DNA of 63,715 nt, the filler included. It is 10 parts of 10 records of this genome, joined end to end, with 100 filler letters (N's around TTAATTAATTAA, not from the genome) between each part and the next. Parts side by side here need not be neighbours in the genome. Positions count along the whole stretch, not along the records: positions 5,329 to 11,630 come from SRR31147125_36598; 9 more parts are not named here. One strand, given 5' to 3'. Positions 2,340 to 57,998 of the stretch are shown piece by piece. The stretch's first letter is position 1; every line of letters starts with the position of its first letter. Under the pieces are notes generated by a model. It was not told the origin of the DNA. It saw only the letters and a list, made by a program, of their open reading frames with translations, and did not search any database. Both the position numbers and the translations under genes were made by a program.

Positions 2340-2541
2340 CTTTTAGTAAATAAAATCTCACACAATATTCACATTTCAAATGTTTAATGTGTAAAAAAAT
2401 GTTAAAAAAGTGAAGGGATTTCCTACACATTATGTTCTAACTGTGATAATATAGATTATAGAAATGATAATTAATAATACAGTAAATGAAAGAATAGAAA
2501 GTAAAATTTACGAAAAAACCAAGAAAGATAAGAGGTAGAAC

Positions 2542-3651
2542 ATGGATTCGACAGCGTTAGATATTATTGCAGCAGTAATTAACTCATTAAAATATTCAAA
2601 TATAGAGAAATATCGATTTGTACAAAAATTTGTTGTTTTAACTAGCTATCTTACAAATTACCTAAACAAGGATATGCAATATACAGTTTCAATGGCAGCC
2701 TTACTAAAAGATGTAGGTGTTATAGGAAAAAATGAGAAAGAAAGAATGAAAAATGTATATAGATCAGCTGAAATAATTAGAATAATGCCAGAGATACTAC
2801 CAGCTCAATATATTATTGCCGATATTATTTTGGAGGTAAATGAAAGAATAGACGGTAGTGGAGCGTATAAAAAGAAAGATATCTCATATGAAGCACAAAT
2901 AATAGGTGTTGTAGTTGATTATCTGCAGTTAGGTTGTGTTGATGAATTGTTTAATCCAGAGAGATATAACCTGGAAATAGTGAACGCTCTTACTGAAGTT
3001 ATAAAAGAGATAGAAGCTAAGTTATTAGACAAAGAGTGGGTAAGTAATAATTTCAGTGAAATAATTAGAATAAATAGTCAAAATACAATAGAGATAAAGG
3101 GAGTAGAGGAGGAGCAGTTTTTAACAACCATAGCAGCGGTTATAGATACACAACATGAATATACAGGCGGCCATACTAGACGTGTTGCGACTTATAGTTA
3201 CTCTCTTGCAAAACATATGGGATATAGAGGAGTAAAGCTTTCTGAGATAAGATACGCAGCCTATCTTCATGATATAGGTAAATTGGCTGTAGATTTTAAT
3301 CTTTTGGATAAACCTTCTTCATTAACAAATGAAGAGTTTGAATCAATAAAGCAGCATGCGGAGTTATCTTATAAAATATTACAGGATTCTCCAACATTAA
3401 AAAACTTAAGATATGGAGCTTTGCATCATGAAAGAATAGATGGAAGAGGTTATCCATTTGGATTATGTGGAGATGCTATACCTGAGCAAGCTAAAATCAT
3501 AGCAATTGCAGATGTATTAGATGCTCTTACTTCTAATAGACCATATAGAAAGCCGTCGACATTTAAAGAAGCTTTGAAAATAATGGAAAAATCTATGGTT
3601 GGAAGTGCACTTGATCCAGCAATTTTTGAGGTTGCAAAAAAAGTTTTTTAA
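2542..3651 (+). CDS. HD-GYP phosphodiesterase with a degenerate N-terminal HD-GYP copy
   Basis: C-terminal GHTRRV, LHDIGK, HHERIDGRGYP; N-terminal LLKDVG and NERIDGSGAY lack the metal-binding His residues. Confidence 0.9.
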   Translation: MDSTALDIIAAVINSLKYSNIEKYRFVQKFVVLTSYLTNYLNKDMQYTVSMAALLKDVGVIGKNEKERMKNVYRSAEIIRIMPEILPAQYIIADIILEVNERIDGSGAYKKKDISYEAQIIGVVVDYLQLGCVDELFNPERYNLEIVNALTEVIKEIEAKLLDKEWVSNNFSEIIRINSQNTIEIKGVEEEQFLTTIAAVIDTQHEYTGGHTRRVATYSYSLAKHMGYRGVKLSEIRYAAYLHDIGKLAVDFNLLDKPSSLTNEEFESIKQHAELSYKILQDSPTLKNLRYGALHHERIDGRGYPFGLCGDAIPEQAKIIAIADVLDALTSNRPYRKPSTFKEALKIMEKSMVGSALDPAIFEVAKKVF

Positions 3652-3840
3652 AAATTAGATAAATTTGTAACATATGTTATTGGAATTCAGAAAAAATGTA
3701 AGTATAATATTTTAGAATACTTAGAGAGTATAGACTTATCATTAAAAAAAGCTTGTTGTACTTAGTTTTTTTAATAAATGTGAAAACATGATTTAAATTA
3801 ATACTGAGAAAAGACTTTTTTTATGGAAATGGAGGAAAAT

Positions 3841-4869
3841 ATGAAAGTTGCATTTTTTGATTCTAAGAAATATGATATTGAGAGTTTTACAAAACACAAT
3901 GAAAGTTTTAATTATAAATTGAAATTTTTTGAACCTAAATTAAATAGTGATTCTGCAATTTTGGCAAAAGGCTATGATGTTGTTTGTATATTTGTTAACG
4001 ATGAAATGAATGCGGAGGTTATTAATGAGCTGAATCAATATGGAGTGAAAATGATAGCTCTGAGATGTGCAGGTTATAACAATGTGGACTTTGAGGCAGC
4101 AGTAGAAAAAATAAAAGTAACTCGTGTACCAGCGTATTCGCCACATGCTGTTGCAGAGCACACAGTTGCTTTAGTTATGAGCTTGAATAGAAAGATTCAC
4201 AAAGCTTATATTAGAACGCGTGAAACAAATTTTACTTTAACTGGTTTAACTGGTTTTGATATGTATAGTAAAACCGCAGGTATAATAGGAACTGGTAAAA
4301 TAGCTAAGATAGTAATAAAAATATTAAAAGGTTTTGGGATGAAAGTTTTAGCTTATGACCCATACCCTGACCTGGAATCGGCAAAAGAGTTAGGTTTTGA
4401 GTATACTGATTTGCCAAACTTATATAAAAATTCAGATATAATCTCTCTTCATTGTCCTTTAACTTCGGATACAAAATATTTGATAAATAAGGATACTATC
4501 TCACAAATGAAGAAAGGTGTAATGATTGTTAATACAGGAAGAGGAAGCTTAATAAATACCCAAGACTTGATTAATGGTTTGAAGAGCGAAAAGGTAGGTT
4601 ATGCGGCTCTTGATGTTTATGAAGAGGAGAGTGAGTATTTCTTCGAAGATTATTCATCAGAGATATTAAATGATGATATTTTGGCAAGATTACTAACTTT
4701 TAACAATGTTCTAATAACCTCTCATCAAGCATTTTTAACAAATGAAGCTTTATCAAATATAGCTGAAACAACTCTAAAAAATATTAGAGAGTTAGAAGAA
4801 AATAGAAAACTCACAAATGAAATATCTTATGTTTGTAAAAATGGGGAATGTGGGATAAAAGAAACTTAA
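3841..4869 (+). CDS. ldhA: NAD-dependent D-lactate (D-2-hydroxyacid) dehydrogenase
   Basis: MKVAFF start, LRCAGYNNVD, VPAYSPHAVAEH, GTGKI, SLHCPL, DVYEEE, SHQAF; upstream in-frame ATG at 3823 also possible. Confidence 0.9.
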   Translation: MKVAFFDSKKYDIESFTKHNESFNYKLKFFEPKLNSDSAILAKGYDVVCIFVNDEMNAEVINELNQYGVKMIALRCAGYNNVDFEAAVEKIKVTRVPAYSPHAVAEHTVALVMSLNRKIHKAYIRTRETNFTLTGLTGFDMYSKTAGIIGTGKIAKIVIKILKGFGMKVLAYDPYPDLESAKELGFEYTDLPNLYKNSDIISLHCPLTSDTKYLINKDTISQMKKGVMIVNTGRGSLINTQDLINGLKSEKVGYAALDVYEEESEYFFEDYSSEILNDDILARLLTFNNVLITSHQAFLTNEALSNIAETTLKNIRELEENRKLTNEISYVCKNGECGIKET

Positions 4870-5228: not shown

Positions 5229-5328
5229 NNNNNNNNNNNNNNNNNNNNNNNNNNNNNNNNNNNNNNNNNNNNTTAATTAATTAANNNNNNNNNNNNNNNN
5301 NNNNNNNNNNNNNNNNNNNNNNNNNNNN
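5229..5328. other. Artificial contig spacer N44-TTAATTAATTAA-N44; further copies at 11631-11730, 17230-17329, 23392-23491, 29411-29510, 36910-37009, 42265-42364, 52615-52714, 57899-57998
   Basis: Identical 100-nt linker with stops in all six frames; base composition and apparent taxonomy change abruptly across each copy. Confidence 0.99.
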
Positions 5329-5356
5329 GTGGTGGTGGTGGTGGTGGTGGTGGTGG
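5329..5356 (+). repeat. (GGT)n microsatellite within an intron at the contig edge
   Basis: Run of GTG/GGT followed by branch point CTAAT and CAG acceptor at 5371-5373. Confidence 0.85.
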
Positions 5357-5373
5357 CTAATCTCCCACCCCAG

Positions 5374-7914
5374 GCAAATTACTATCGAAATGCCTTTCTC
5401 CACATCCTCTACCGCCAACTTTTCACGTGGTTGGTGGCACGACTCAATGAACTGCTGGTGCCATCAAGCGAGGAGAACTATGTAACCCTCGGAATCTTTG
5501 ACATGATGGGCTTTGAAAGCGGCAAAGTGAGAATGCGTCACTGTCCTGCTTTCAGTCTTTGAACCAATCCCTCAGAGGAATAATTTCGATGTTCTGCGTA
5601 TTAACATGATTTCAGAACGGGTGTTACTCCTCGTGAATGACTTCATGAGGTTTCAAGACAAGTACGGCAGGGAAACCGACCAATCAACCCACTAACCAAC
5701 TATCAGATTCGCTCAGTTCTCAGGACCATCTCTGGGCAGAGATGGGGTGAAATCATCGTGCATGCGAAACATGGAATGTCTTCACCTCCTTGACTCGCAA
5801 CGAGTATGGAGGAGAGGAGTGTCGTTGACACATTCTCCTCAAGAATTTGCACCCTCAGGGGAAGGCTCTCTCGACGTGCCTGGAAGAAGTTTCTTTCTCT
5901 CCAACAGGAAATGATACATCGTTCATGGAGTGCCTGTGCCGTCAACTACCCAAGCACACAGAGGGATCTCGCTCCTTCCAATTGCCCCATTCATTTGGAC
6001 AGGTCTGGGACATCCAGCTCTTGCGATTCTTGGAGTTCATTCGTGTGAGTCAGGTGACATATCAAAGCAATGGTTTCGTGGATCGCAATCGCAACATCTA
6101 TCCGTGTGTTGGGATTGTTTCTCTTGTGTTCTCTGTGTACCCATTTCCTTCTTCAGATATGAATTCGGTCAGGTTGTCCATGCGAGTTCAAGCCAATTCA
6201 TGCGGGAGCTCCTGGGTTCCCTCAAGGCCGACTCTCTTCCTCATTCCACAGCGCTCTCCGACTTGAAGGTTTGTCTGCTTTGGGCTTGTGTCCACTCATC
6301 CATTGCTTACATGTGTATAGGACGTTCTGGATGAGTTGGAGGCCGACATAACCGGACAGTCCGTCCCATTCTTTGTGATCTGCCTCAAGGCGAATCAGAT
6401 GCGTCAATCCCACCTGTTCGACGGGGACTTTGTACTCCAGCAACTCCGGACTTGGAGTGTCCTGGAGTTGTGCATTGTCCATCGTGATTATCGGTTTGTT
6501 TGTACACCTGAAGACTTTTTGGAAAGGTGAGGAGAAGGTGCTTGCAAGGGCGGCCTTGTTGACACATCAATGCAAGATACAAACGATTCTTTCATGTACC
6601 GGACGCCTCGGACTGTATTGAATTCGCTGCGCATGTTCTAGTCGAATTCACCAATTCAGTCCACGACTTTCGTTTTGACCAAGGGCTTCTTGCCTTGAGT
6701 AATAACGGGTATGAAATCCTCGAGAAACACCGAGGGGAGGTGCTGGAGAGGAGTGCACGAATTGTACAACGTGTGTGGCGACAGTGGCGACAGCAACAAC
6801 AGCGACGGCAAGGCGAGGCAGATTCTGGTGGGGCACCTTCGGCTGATTGGGTCCAATGGGCCATGTCGAGAGAATCACAACCACCCGTTTCCGATGAGTC
6901 ACCTCCTGCTGCCGCAGACGATTCGCCCCTTGACACGGGTGTGGACACAACACAAGAAGAAATCGCACCACCTTCCTACTCTGCGGCCATGATCAGTATT
7001 CTACTGGATGAGAGCACTGCACCGGACGCTGTTTCACCACAGAGACCCGTTCCTGCCCCGGATACGCAACATGCCTCCCTCCCACCTCCTCTAGCGCTAT
7101 CCCCGGAAAGGGGCTCAAGAAATATGCACACTCCCTCTCCAACCACTGCGATCTTTACTCCTCGCGCCCGAAAGTCCAAGGAGGTGACCCTTGGGCTGAG
7201 TGCTGCCGGTATGGCGTCTGTTGAAAATGAAGTGCACTCAATGATGGTGGAATCAATGGCCTTGACGTTGCGGGTGCGTGTACTTTTCATGCCAATTCCG
7301 TCTTTCAATACCCATGCGTTCAGTAGAGTGGGACGGTCATGCAATGCTTCTTGACGAAACCGAGAGGCGGCGAGAGTCCCTTACAACCCGTATTTGTCAA
7401 GCTGTCTGATGACAGACAACGCATTCTTCACACTCCCATATCTTCTTCGAATCGACTTCCCTCCACGATCCGTTGTGATACACCCAGTGCGTGCCGTGTG
7501 TGAAGGAGAGGAAAGGAATCCACAGAATCTGAGGGACGGAGTTCTTTGTAGTTCTTCTTCGTGACATCTGGCGCTTGTCCGTCCAATCGGAATCCGATTG
7601 CGCGCACGAGGGCACATCAACACAATTGGCCTTCACATTGGTGATGCCATCCGGCAATTTCACGTTTGTGGCAGGAAATCGTGACGACTATGTAGCGTGG
7701 ACAGATGGTCTTCGAGCGCTTGCTCGGCTTGGTACGATCCCCCGCCCGTCCATGTATGCCTCCCACTCACATCACACACAGGTAGTATGCAAGAACCAGA
7801 AACACGACGGTACACACATGTTTGGTTATTGGGTTCTTGTCGTGTGACACCACTTCAATGTGCAGGGAGATTGACATGTTAACGGAGATTGAGGCCGAAC
7901 TCCGTTTAGAATGA
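5374..7914 (+). CDS. Spliced eukaryotic gene, 5' truncated: divergent myosin motor C-half, IQ motif, Pro-rich linker, ELMO-type PH domain
   Basis: Exons joined at GT-AG introns give LYRQLFTWLVARLN, GIFDMMGFE, NNFDVLRINMISE, PFFVICLKAN, VLQQLR, IVQRVWRQW, then DCAH...LAFTLV...WTDGLRAL...EIDMLTEIEAELRLE*. Confidence 0.85.
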
Positions 7915-7946
7915 CACGCCACGCATTACATTCTTTGCAGTCCTCT

Positions 7947-9533
7947 TCATATGTGCAATGTGTCAACCACCATATTGTAGAGCGCTTCGTTCACGTTCCT
8001 CCACCGTTCCCCCTCCTCTCGCAAGTGTGAAACTTCGGTTTGGAGTGGCTCAAGCTGAGCCTCGACGTTTTCCCGCATTCCCACAGTCTGGAATGCGGTG
8101 TCAACGATCTGATTTGGAAAGGTTTCGTCAACACACACGAACCATAAGCTGACGAGTTCCCTGTAAGACATGAGAATCCACTATGTCCTCGTTCTCGTCA
8201 TGATCCGGTACATCGGCCTTCAACAAACACGGTACACCAATCCCGTCACGCTCTGTGGCATATTTGCGAAAAATGGCAAGCGGCAAGGGGGGTGTTTCGA
8301 ATTGAGAAGAGAGACGGGGTGGCTGAGGTACAACAAGGGCCGATGTGATGGGTCCTGCACACACGTACACACGTACACACACACACGGCCGTGAGGGCGG
8401 CGGCCGCATCCCATCTAACACCCACCTCGATGTCCTGAAAAGATACGGAGAACGAGCCGTGATGTTACGTCCCATACACGCGCCGTACCATCTTCGGATG
8501 TTGAGAGCATGAGCATTCCATCCGAACTCACACGCACAGAGGAGATTGCCAGGCTGGTATTATACGTAAGTAAATCACACCTCTCCGCGAACTGCATCAA
8601 CACACGTGTGTCCCACAAAACACGAAGGCGTATCCTCGCCTCTCGTCTTGATTCCGAGTAGATCCCACATGTAAATCATTCCATTCATACATCCAGCAAA
8701 GAGCTGTGTTTCTTGTGGATCTACGTCCACTGCGACCACAGCAGCAGGAAACAGAAAGGAGGCCAGAAGCGTTCCTGTCGCTGTGTCGTACACTTTGGAC
8801 GTATGGTCCAATGAAGCCGTATACACGCGTGAACCCACTCCTCCTCGTAGACACGTGATAGGAAGGGTGTGTGAGGACCACGAATGCACAGGTGCAAGAG
8901 GAGTTGAGTCGAGGAGACTGAGTCACTTCGTCATGCACACACACACACACACGACGACAACGACAACAAGGACGATACGCACTCGCATAATCGCCAGACA
9001 TGGATAATTGCATCCTCACCTCCCGATACCAGACGAGAACCTCCATCGACAAACGCAAGACTCCGCACCGAACGATAATGTGCATTCCACGTGCGTAACA
9101 ACAACCCCGACGTCGTCTAGGGTGCGTATTGTTCCTCTTTTGTGCACAAAGAAGCCCCACGAACACATCCCGTCCGTACCTGCCACACAAACGCCTGCCC
9201 CGACTTCCCACCCGCTACACAATACGCTCCATCCGATGATACCACAAGACACGTCATGATCTCTGGGAGGATACAGCGTCGCAAACACTGAGGCTGCGAG
9301 ACAGACGTCGGGACACAACGTTCCCGACACGTCGAGTGGGCACGCACACGACCCCACGCCCAAAAGTGCAGGGCAGGCCGATCTCCTTGTGCTGCCACCA
9401 CGAAATCACCACACACAGACGCTAGTGCCGCGGTCAGGCCACTTCCCTTCAAGGGTCCTAAGGATGTTCCTGTACGTAAGGACCACACATGGATGTCCTC
9501 ATGGGATGCAGTCAATACGACGTCTTCCTCCAT
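7947..9533 (-). CDS. WDR18: Spliced WD40 protein WDR18/IPI3 (rixosome, pre-rRNA processing)
   Basis: IHVWSLRTG, AAQGDRPALHFW, ILPEIMTCL, WNAHYRSV, SGGEDA, HTLPIT, TASLDHT, SEDGTARVWD, C-terminal coiled coil; several short GT-AG introns. Confidence 0.85.
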
Positions 9534-10757
9534 GGAGGACGAAGGAATGAGAGGAATTTACGTACAAGACATGTGTTTGGACAAGAGATCGGCCAGATCC
9601 TGCTTTCCCGAACGATACGCACAATCTCGTGTCGTGGCATCCACCTGTCACCAGACGCATGACTAAATTCTCGTACACCATTCCCTCCACTACCACCTCC
9701 TCCACCAACATTGGCTCCATGATCAAGAAGTAAGACAGAGACACTCACAACATCTTCTTCTGGTTCCTTTGACAAGGCCGCAAGTTGTAGGGGTGTCTTC
9801 CTCCCCACCTGATCCGATCATCAACCAATTGATCCATGCATCTCAAGCAGCACACACATGCACACACATTTGCACTGCACACATTGACGTAGGCTCCACC
9901 TTCAAGCAACAGGGATGTCATACGATGATCCGCTCTTCGTGCAGCATTATGCAACGGAGACCATCCCGCCTGTCCGTTCTCCGTTGCCCCAAAGGGATCG
10001 ATCCCCACCAACCTTCGCACCTTATCGACGGCATGAACATTTGCACCATGTTCTAGAAGCGCGTGCACTACATCTGCGGAACTCATGTCTGTCGCAAGGA
10101 TCAACGGTGTTGCACCTTCCTAGGTGGCGACATGCAACGTCGGAAGATCTGTCCCGATCGATCCACCCAAACACACGTAAGCGGTTGTGGCGTTCACATT
10201 TGCTCCATTCTCCAATAGAAGTGTGATGAATGCAGGATCTACATGGGGATTTGTACACACAAGATGGAGTGGTGTTGCACGGTCCTGCAAAGGCGGAATC
10301 AAGCACCGCCGATCCATCCATCAACCCACCAGTGTTTGTGCATCAACCATCGCCCCGTGTGCGAGAAGCAGGCGACCTATAGCAACATAACCATTCCGAG
10401 CAGCGTCATGAAGGGGCGTAGAAAGGTTCTGGATCGTACGGAGATCAGATGCTTGCAAGGGAACGAATCCCTCCTCCACACCCTTTCCACAAACGCAGCG
10501 TTGACGTCTCCACCCCCAGCAACCAGTCGTTGAACAAGTCGAACTTCCCCATGCACAGCAGCCCAGTGGAGGAGTGTGTGGGTGGACGGAACCACCACAT
10601 GAGCGAGTTCTTGACACTGGATCCAGAGTTCGTTGTCTACAAGGGTACGCCACATACGACAGACTTGTGACGCCCGTGCAAGGGACATCGGATCGTCCAG
10701 AAGACACGCCAAGATGGATGCTACGATCTCTTCAGGGAGGGCTTGCCAGGGCACCAT
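9512..10757 (-). CDS. Spliced F-box plus ankyrin-repeat protein (about 6 repeats)
   Basis: F-box LPEEIVASIL...SQVCRMWR...LW; ankyrin motifs TLLHWAA, TPLHDAA, TPLHLVC, TPLILA, SPLHNAA, TPLQLAA; exact 3' end uncertain. Confidence 0.82.
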
Positions 10758-10833
10758 GGCCAGGAGAGGAGAAGAGAGGAGGAGAGAGGAGATTGGGTGC
10801 GTGGCATTCCCCCTCGTCGGAGATCCTCTGGGG

Positions 10834-11584
10834 ATGGCTGGTGCCCATGGGTTTCTGACCGAGAAGATCCGCCTTGTCCCCTCGTTTGCGTATGATATAA
10901 CACTGCTGTGTGCTCGACGCAGTGGGTTGGGGTTGATGGGTTGGGGAATCCTCATATGAGACGCTGATATTGATTCCCATAACAGACCAACTGGCGCGAA
11001 CAGTCCTGTGGGAAGTGAAGCAACTGTTGAACAAGGCTGTGTCTCCCTTGGAACTGAAGGGCTTGTGTCCGTGTGGAGATGTTGAAGTGTGTGTGTGTGT
11101 GTGGCACCCTACCCGTCTTCTGATGATAGACAGGAGGATTCTGATGGTGGCGAACGCATGCGGCTGTCTTGGGTGACGACATCTGAGGAAGATGGTTGTG
11201 TACTGGTGCGCACGCGTTTTCTGGGGGCCCGAGAGCGTGTCCACGAGGCGTATCGACGCAAAAATGTTAGAAAGAAAGACTTGATCGTGTGCACCTTCGC
11301 TATCGAGGCATTGTGGAGCCGATCGTCGTATCAGGTGCGCGACACAACCTCGTGCGGCACAGATATTGAGGATATGGACGACGGTAGTATCGGAAGTTAT
11401 GCCCACATCCCTGCAAGATGAATGGATTGCCCACTTTGGGGGGGATGCTGACGGTGCGGGACGATTCCTTTCCTGTTGGTGAATTGTCCTGACACGAGAC
11501 AACAGAGGATCACGTGGCCCTCTTCGTAGGACGGTTTCCTGGGGAACGACCAGACACGATCACGTTGGAAGGACTTCCTGCCGG
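10834..11584 (+). CDS. AKAP17A: Spliced AKAP17A/XE7-like splicing factor, 3' truncated
   Basis: Spliced peptides VLWEVKQLL and PGERPDTITLEGLP match recalled AKAP17A motifs SNWEVMERL and PGERPDTIHLEGLP; first intron 10922-10985. Confidence 0.7.
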
Positions 11585-11606
11585 GGTGCACAGCGTTCTT
11601 TCTCTC

Positions 11607-11630
11607 CTTCTTCTTCTTCTTCTTCTTCTT
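11607..11630 (+). repeat. (CTT)n microsatellite at contig end
   Basis: Direct observation. Confidence 0.85.
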
Positions 11631-11730
11631 NNNNNNNNNNNNNNNNNNNNNNNNNNNNNNNNNNNNNNNNNNNNTTAATTAATTAANNNNNNNNNNNNNN
11701 NNNNNNNNNNNNNNNNNNNNNNNNNNNNNN

Positions 11731-17229: not shown

Positions 17230-17477
17230 NNNNNNNNNNNNNNNNNNNNNNNNNNNNNNNNNNNNNNNNNNNNTTAATTAATTAANNNNNNNNNNNNNNN
17301 NNNNNNNNNNNNNNNNNNNNNNNNNNNNNGGGGTATCCTGTTCAGTGCTGCATTGATGGATGAATCGCTCTATTTTCTTAAGGGATTGTTTTATATAGAT
17401 TATTCGAAAACTCGTATAACCTCATATTGGGAAAATAATAATCACAACAAAAAAATAATTACAAGCCTCGTAATAAT

Positions 17478-23265: not shown

Positions 23266-23491
23266 AATATAATATAATAGATTCTTATTGTCAAGAAAAA
23301 TCGGTTTTTTTATCTTAACTTCTAAAAACAAAAATGCATCTCATGGTGATGGACTGGCATTAAATGCATATTCCGGTAAAACTTGCCACTGNNNNNNNNN
23401 NNNNNNNNNNNNNNNNNNNNNNNNNNNNNNNNNNNTTAATTAATTAANNNNNNNNNNNNNNNNNNNNNNNNNNNNNNNNNNNNNNNNNNNN

Positions 23492-29410: not shown

Positions 29411-29510
29411 NNNNNNNNNNNNNNNNNNNNNNNNNNNNNNNNNNNNNNNNNNNNTTAATTAATTAANNNNNNNNNNNNNNNNNNNNNNNNNNNNNNNNNN
29501 NNNNNNNNNN

Positions 29511-36909: not shown

Positions 36910-37009
36910 NNNNNNNNNNNNNNNNNNNNNNNNNNNNNNNNNNNNNNNNNNNNTTAATTAATTAANNNNNNNNNNNNNNNNNNNNNNNNNNNNNNNNNNN
37001 NNNNNNNNN

Positions 37010-42264: not shown

Positions 42265-42364
42265 NNNNNNNNNNNNNNNNNNNNNNNNNNNNNNNNNNNN
42301 NNNNNNNNTTAATTAATTAANNNNNNNNNNNNNNNNNNNNNNNNNNNNNNNNNNNNNNNNNNNN

Positions 42365-52532: not shown

Positions 52533-52714
52533 AATAATTTGCCTCCTTTTAGAATATTTAATATTTATAAAAATTTATTATTTATTTTAAACTCGATGGA
52601 TTATAACATTAAAANNNNNNNNNNNNNNNNNNNNNNNNNNNNNNNNNNNNNNNNNNNNTTAATTAATTAANNNNNNNNNNNNNNNNNNNNNNNNNNNNNN
52701 NNNNNNNNNNNNNN

Positions 52715-57898: not shown

Positions 57899-57998
57899 NN
57901 NNNNNNNNNNNNNNNNNNNNNNNNNNNNNNNNNNNNNNNNNNTTAATTAATTAANNNNNNNNNNNNNNNNNNNNNNNNNNNNNNNNNNNNNNNNNNNN

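Follow-up and report, generated by a model that had tools for sequence, protein, structure and literature searches.

The window studied here (a stretch of 63,715 nt, or 63.7 kb) consists of ten unrelated contigs with guanine plus cytosine (G+C) contents of 29-58%, joined through 100-nt N spacers. Nine of the ten look bacterial, with long unbroken open reading frames (ORFs), bacterial coding density and widely differing G+C, and only positions 5329-11630 (6302 bp, 52.5% G+C) form a eukaryotic contig, with the broken-ORF pattern of an intron-bearing gene. The gene under study occupies 5329-7914 on the + strand, at the 5′ end of this contig, by which it is cut at its own 5′ side. Its product joins a head that, judged from its sequence matches, is a very divergent myosin to a neck, a linker and a tail whose scorable half is ELMO-like and has a PH fold pattern. 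Taken as a whole, the locus is best explained, with moderate confidence, as the 3′ two-thirds of the gene of an expressed, orphan, divergent myosin carrying an IQ-like helix, a disordered linker, a further helix and an ELMO-like C-terminal PH domain. A preliminary description of this DNA had put a divergent myosin fused to an ELMO-type PH module at this place, and the exon model and the spliced contigs reported below locate the gene there.

The gene model was built from three forward-frame readings joined at GT-AG sites. It comprises 12 exons, eleven GT-AG introns (45-65 nt) and 668 open codons, and ends at a TGA stop codon (7912-7914). For the splicing check, contigs of two public runs of the same sample, X1 and X2, were aligned to positions 5329-8400 (X2 lacks a recorded library type, and its label 'DNA?' is a guess). 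Nine introns were removed exactly in the X2 contigs, all of them GT..AG and 45-65 nt in length: on the + strand, 5527-5575, 5662-5706, 5804-5858, 6003-6053, 6104-6156, 6269-6320, 6527-6576, 7274-7326 and 7487-7551. The first and the eighth of these had been offered as examples in the preliminary description, and the junction check on transcripts that it had proposed confirmed all nine between 5382 and 7728. X2 record 7 (789 nt) corresponds to 5382-6475 and crosses six joints, record 8 to 6475-6523 plus 6574-6812, and record 9 (817 nt) to 6794-7272/3 plus 7326/7-7486 plus 7552-7728; the lengths of records 7 and 9 are the exact sums of the exon parts of the model. The X1 contigs retained introns, records 1 (5939-6089), 2 (6128-6383) and 5 (7149-7315) each crossing an intron or an exon-intron border, while in X2 only spliced forms were found, for two genes of this contig. 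Given its spliced contigs and their exact exon-sum lengths, X2 behaves as complementary DNA (cDNA), and it is probably a cDNA library from the same sample as X1. The myosin gene is expressed and spliced as modelled from 5382 to 7728. The features of the gene are as follows.

5329-5355, + strand: contig-end (GTG)n microsatellite, at which the myosin gene is cut on its 5′ side; skipped in contig matching
5356-5526, + strand: exon 1 as present on the contig, myosin upper-50K / switch II region; joint 5526>5576 in X2
5576-5661, + strand: exon 2, motor; X2 joints 5526>5576 and 5661>5707
5707-5803, + strand: exon 3, motor; X2 joints 5661>5707 and 5803>5859
5859-6002, + strand: exon 4a, motor; X2 joints
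6054-6103, + strand: exon 4b, motor; X2 contigs
6157-6268, + strand: exon 5, motor; X2 contigs
6321-6526, + strand: exon 6, motor lower-50K / SH1-SH2 region, its core motifs divergent; X2 joints
6577-7273, + strand: exon 7, end of the motor (converter), neck, linker and pre-PH helix; X2 records 8 and 9, no internal joints
6731-6823, + strand: predicted IQ-like helix, core 6761-6808; single-sequence AlphaFold (AF2) model
6824-7201, + strand: linker, predicted to be disordered; composition and AF2
7202-7270, + strand: predicted helix just before the PH domain; AF2, predicted local distance difference test score (pLDDT) of about 30
7327-7486, + strand: exon 8, first half of the PH domain; X2 record 9, joints 7273>7327 and 7486>7552
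7552-7731, + strand: exon 9, second half of the PH domain, with three strands followed by a helix; X2 record 9 up to 7728
7782-7809, + strand: exon 10, predicted; GT-AG model only
7866-7914, + strand: exon 11, predicted, with the stop codon; GT-AG model, which would give a short amphipathic C-terminal helix

In X2 record 9 the linker, from 6794 on, is continuous with the two PH exons, and therefore the PH tail is on the mRNA of the neck; motor, neck, linker and PH tail belong to one spliced mRNA. This bears on another arrangement of the locus, namely two genes, with a myosin that stops at 7352-7354 and a small PH protein whose start is the ATG at 7339, or else a chimeric assembly. If intron 7274-7326 is retained, the motor frame does stop at 7352-7354 and the ATG at 7339 does lie in the PH frame. 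However, record 9 connects 7273 to 7327 with at least 161 nt on either side and continues through exon 9, the frame stays open across the splice, DNA contig 5 of X1 (7149-7315) supports the genomic junction, and the two genes would overlap, leaving no promoter space. Two genes or a chimera are therefore extremely improbable, and the separate transcripts that the preliminary description had named as a possible outcome did not appear.

One of the confirmed introns, the 51-nt intron 6003-6053, is in frame, and its excision drops 17 residues. As it holds no stop codon it is invisible in the translation, and it was seen solely through the spliced contigs (X2 joint 5999>6051, 'cut +3', GT..AG), X1 record 1 retaining it. 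The preliminary description was thus right about the splicing at short GT-AG introns but overlooked this one. Removal of the intron puts H-S-F-G beside V-T-Y, a junction that appears to match the 'HYAG.V.Y' consensus region of myosins better than the read-through does. At the opposite end of the gene, introns 7732-7781 (50 nt) and 7810-7865 (56 nt) are predicted from their GT-AG sites, from sizes within the verified 45-65 nt and from branch-like motifs; X2 gives no cover across 7729-7903. In this 3′ end 289 GT-AG models leave the frame open, and the last 25 residues are a prediction. The heptamer TTGACAC lies approximately 10-30 nt before the acceptor in introns 5804-5858, 6527-6576 and 8088-8142 (the last on the minus strand), with GTGACAC in the predicted intron 7810-7865, and it may be the branch-site motif of the host. 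The poly-valine stretch that leads the translation is the (GTG)n repeat at the contig end and is unreliable as coding sequence.

With respect to the head, nine exon translations were scanned singly against Pfam, and three of them matched Myosin_head (PF00063): exon 1 (E 4.8e-9, 35.5 bits, gathering cut-off 33.3, profile 327-375), exon 4 (5859-6101 read through; E 0.018, profile 442-506) and exon 6 (E 2.1e-4, profile 575-617). These matches are collinear in genomic order along a profile of length 679, and the remaining motor exons, which are short, had no Pfam match. In the PDB, exon 1 gave 82 matches at E ≤ 0.01, the best 60 of which were all myosins; the top match was Dictyostelium myosin IE (E 2.2e-6), with DMMGFE aligned to DIYGFE. 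The switch II pattern of myosins is DxxGFE, and exon 1 keeps it as DMMGFE. Myosins accounted for 37 of the 38 PDB matches of exon 6 at E ≤ 1, the best values, of about 0.004, falling to myosins VIIa, X and XV (top, myosin VIIa at 0.0036). These results bear out the divergent C-terminal half of a myosin motor claimed in the preliminary description. Since the nearest class varies by exon (I for exon 1; VII, X and XV for exon 6), 'orphan' is a fair label. The contig does not reach the N-terminal half of the motor, which lies 5′ of 5329 and amounts to some 326 positions of the Pfam profile, the P-loop and switch I among them.

The same data allow for a head that has become a degenerate pseudo-motor, the protein being a static actin-binding or scaffolding protein. 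In the core loop of exon 6, PFFVICLKAN stands opposite PFFVRCIKPN of myosin VIIa, and the SH1/SH2 region also differs; moreover, the converter part of exon 7 (6578-6850) matches no myosin in the PDB, exon 4a alone has no PDB match, and the shift of best class between exons 1 and 6 would fit as well. The retention of switch II, and the fact that the gene is expressed, correctly spliced and intact in frame, speak against this; the P-loop and switch I are beyond the contig end. All considered, we regard a pseudo-motor as unlikely.

The neck, encoded in exon 7, gave no match to Pfam IQ; it was matched by IQCJ-SCHIP1 (E 0.021), a Pfam family 'with IQ-like motif'. The single-sequence AF2 model of exon 7 (mean pLDDT 48) has a long helix over the IQ-like stretch (exon-7 residues 52-82, block pLDDT 75-81), a predicted light-chain or calmodulin site. 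Of the 'one IQ motif' proposed previously, the IQ-like character stands and the membership of the Pfam family does not. The linker that follows is of about 130 aa and rich in Pro, Ser and Ala, as the Pro/Ser linker of the preliminary description implied, and 157 residues separate the IQ-like helix from the start of the PH domain, with Ala, Ser and Pro at 13% each. About 110 residues of the linker are nearly devoid of secondary structure in the AF2 model, with low pLDDT, except for one short helix (exon-7 residues 89-99). A second helix is predicted over the 23 residues preceding the PH domain (exon-7 residues 209-231) and may correspond to the N-terminal one of the two helices that flank the ELMO PH domain.

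The tail domain is encoded by exons 8 and 9. Exon 9 (59 aa) matched the ELMO-type PH family of Pfam, PH_12 (PF16457), with E 4.4e-4 and 21.1 bits, over 7596-7724 and profile positions 87-130 of 131, and at E up to 10 neither the generic PH family (PF00169) nor the PLC-type or any other PH family of Pfam was found for it. In the PDB (phmmer), all five matches at E ≤ 10 were ELMO1 chains, the top one being 2vsz_A (0.017), where exon-9 residues 23-56 align to residues 112-146 over LAF...F.A...Y..WTDGL.AL. Modelled alone by AF2, exon 9 forms strand-strand-strand-helix (pLDDT 74), which in the model is the pattern of the C-terminal half of the PH fold. By these sequence comparisons membership of the tail in PH_12 is probable, and its closest recognisable relatives are, somewhat more probably than otherwise, the non-canonical PH domains of ELMO/CED-12. 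A better score as a generic or PLC-type PH domain, the outcome that the preliminary description had set against itself, was not obtained for exon 9; of its ELMO-type tail, the exclusive match of exon 9 to PH_12 and ELMO1 holds, while the score is below threshold, exon 8 went unrecognised and the PxxP motif of ELMO proteins is absent.

Several points weigh against an ELMO-like tail on a working myosin. The PH_12 score of 21.1 bits is under the gathering cut-off of 27, and the scorable part was exon 9 alone, with 59 of the domain's roughly 115 residues; exon 8 had no PH match in Pfam, 0 matches in the PDB and none in the ESM Atlas. Foldseek with the exon 9 model returned no match at E ≤ 0.001, a null that is expected because the model is half a domain; in favour of the ELMO likeness, though not significant, the rows with about 31-32% identity are the ELMO1 PH entries 2vsz_B and 3a98_B (ELMO1 PH entries stood at ranks 2 and 13). 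In the ESM Atlas, exon 9 placed generic PH clusters above the ELMO cluster (rank 19, 0.76), all named neighbours being < 0.9. The pre-PH helix has a pLDDT of only about 30, and the C-terminal helix depends on introns 7732-7781 and 7810-7865, both without transcript cover; the region of this trailing helix (7849-7911) gave in the PDB only chance matches to a repeat construct. In the modelled C-terminus there is no PxxP or poly-proline after the PH domain, only a single isolated proline before the stop. As for the head, the motor motifs are strongly altered and the ATP-binding half is beyond the contig end, so that motor activity is putative. Finally, no DOCK, ELMO or Rac gene is known from the host.

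Much of this would also suit an ordinary membrane- or cargo-targeting PH domain, the ELMO likeness over some 40 residues being convergence or shared PH ancestry. The PH_12 match covers the last third of the profile only, the ESM Atlas neighbours are mostly generic, and the Trp of the C-terminal helix is one that PH domains commonly have. Myosins with a C-terminal PH domain are, besides, already known: class XXX of Ectocarpus has one, and classes XXXI and XXXIII are also PH-bearing (PMC3942036, PMC2375034). On the other hand, neither PH exon yields a generic PH family at E up to 10 while PH_12 is found, and the PDB sequence matches are of ELMO1 only. The strand 1-2 region does not show, on direct reading, the K...(K/R)xR pattern that is the basic phosphoinositide-binding signature of PH domains. 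An ordinary PH domain is in our opinion a possible but somewhat unlikely explanation, and the same holds for its corollary, a motor tethered to the membrane like myosin I through TH1, myosin X or the heterokont class XXX.

The ELMO PH domain, which the preferred explanation takes as the model of this tail, is described as non-canonical and without phosphoinositide-binding residues (PMC7351999). In its complex with DOCK, the two flanking helices of the PH domain and a helical segment beside the DOCK SH3 domain form a six-helix bundle, and a PxxP motif directly after the PH domain binds that SH3 domain (PMC7351999). The myosin tail resembles the PH domain of ELMO1/CED-12 (PF16457; PDB 2VSZ, 3A98) in the LAF...F.A...Y..WTDGL.AL stretch and in the strand-strand-strand-helix end, and it has a weakly predicted helix before the PH domain and possibly, also by prediction, one after it. 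The likeness is partial and sub-threshold; unlike in ELMO/CED-12, a myosin motor lies upstream in place of the RBD, EID and ELMO domains, with no ELMO-family match in Pfam, and the modelled protein ends about 25 residues beyond the PH helix. In function the tail may be similar to an ELMO PH domain, but the protein itself does not belong to the ELMO family.

The orphan myosin has in common with classes XXX and XXXI/XXXIII (PMC3942036, PMC2375034) that a short neck follows the myosin head and that a PH domain closes, or almost closes, the chain. The PH domain of those classes is reported as generic PF00169, class XXXI adding ankyrin repeats and Aida_C2, while the tail and the neck of the orphan myosin had no sequence relative in protein searches. 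Mcp5_PH myosins are also among the known PH-tailed myosins. Myosin X, which reportedly targets via the PH domains of its tail (PMC3216653), is another point of comparison, since the nearest PDB classes to exon 6, though only weakly so, are VII, X and XV. It differs in carrying a PH1N-PH2-PH1C tandem that binds PI(3,4,5)P3, followed by MyTH4-FERM, in contrast to a single, terminal, ELMO-like PH domain.

Regarding relatives, word-indexed protein searches ('longer' proteins) found none for exons 9 and 7 and no close one for exon 1. An HMMER scan of 1.84 billion representative proteins with exon 9 gave 7 matches at E ≤ 0.001, which were rejected as spurious, as none had a PH or myosin family; six of them consisted of 6-11 weak stretches and one had none listed, and three were bacterial proteins, repetitive and rich in beta structure (Big_2, lactonase propeller, InlB B-repeat). 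Exons 7 and 9 had no match in scans of metagenome contigs either. A genome contig scan with exon 9 produced one 22-residue match, in L001, discarded as chance since it falls within a 355-aa ORF, in antisense to it, on a contig of a bacterial metagenome-assembled genome. That no relative of the tail or the neck, and no close one of exon 1, could be detected points to an unsampled eukaryotic lineage.

The word 'ELMO' had 0 occurrences in the main texts of the myosin classification papers and in the searched supplements of PMC3942036 (one file unreadable) and PMC5583752. A full-text literature search gave nothing relevant linking myosin to PH_12 (PF16457) or to ELMO/DOCK. An ELMO-type PH tail was thus not found in the myosin catalogues searched, in agreement with the preliminary description, which knew of no described class with such a tail. 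It must be noted that PH_12 joined Pfam after the 2014 myosin survey, so that the older catalogue could have overlooked a tail of this type.

Myosin tails determine the cargo of the motor, and the ELMO PH module is not known in any role other than that of partner to the DOCK exchange factors, which activate Rac and so drive actin assembly. In the orphan myosin, the head would bind actin, and movement on actin may or may not persist. The tail PH domain would act as a protein-binding rather than a phosphoinositide-binding module, as in ELMO, its likeliest partner by analogy being the helical region near the N-terminus of an exchange factor of the DOCK type. In that case a Rac/Cdc42 activator would be positioned on actin structures, or carried on them, by the myosin. 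A coupling of actin to DOCK/Rac, as the preliminary description had suggested, is by this analogy a reasonable proposal, but one to which we give a low probability. The more specific idea of a new myosin class, its tail a minimal ELMO module (helix-PH-helix) and its motor serving as an ELMO-like DOCK subunit that delivers Rac/Cdc42 activation along or onto actin filaments, is speculative and quite improbable at present. If true, it would be a direct fusion of force generation with the control of actin signalling. Any myosin that ends in the ELMO PH module would form a one-protein link between actin-based movement and the actin-growth machinery, and would mean that this module is able to work outside ELMO proteins. 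If the ELMO likeness is superficial, the protein is one more orphan PH-tailed myosin, which would be unremarkable because 79 myosin classes are already described (PMC5583752).

The source of the gene is a metagenomic eukaryote with a compact, intron-rich genome, for which the label 'protist' is a guess. A Blastocystis-like stramenopile was weighed as the host for its compact genome and short introns; no result backs it and no sequenced relative was found. The eukaryotic contig starts in the (GTG)n repeat and finishes in a (CTT)n-type repeat, with microsatellites at both edges (5329-5355 and 11590-11630), and since they bound the contig the assembly probably broke there. In addition, (CA)n tracts occur near 8370-8385 and 8935-8955, microsatellites thus being present between and inside genes as well.

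Convergent with the myosin gene, a WD40-repeat gene lies at about 7947-9557 on the minus strand. Its frame ends around 30 nt from the myosin stop codon, which indicates a compact genome, and its intron 8088-8142 (CT..AC on the + strand) is also removed in X2. The PDB matches of this gene include WDR18 and Ipi3 at matching N-terminal positions, with generic WD40 proteins ranking higher. A further gene at about 9745-11108, on the minus strand as well, encodes an F-box (E 3.4e-10) with several ankyrin repeats after it.

The N spacers that separate the contigs contain TTAATTAATTAA and are located at 5229-5328, 11631-11730, 17230-17329, 23392-23491, 29411-29510, 36910-37009, 42265-42364, 52615-52714 and 57899-57998. 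On the adjoining bacterial contig, direct reading revealed two low-G+C ORFs, 2539-3648 and 3808-4866, which by eye resemble an HD-domain signalling protein and a D-isomer 2-hydroxyacid dehydrogenase.

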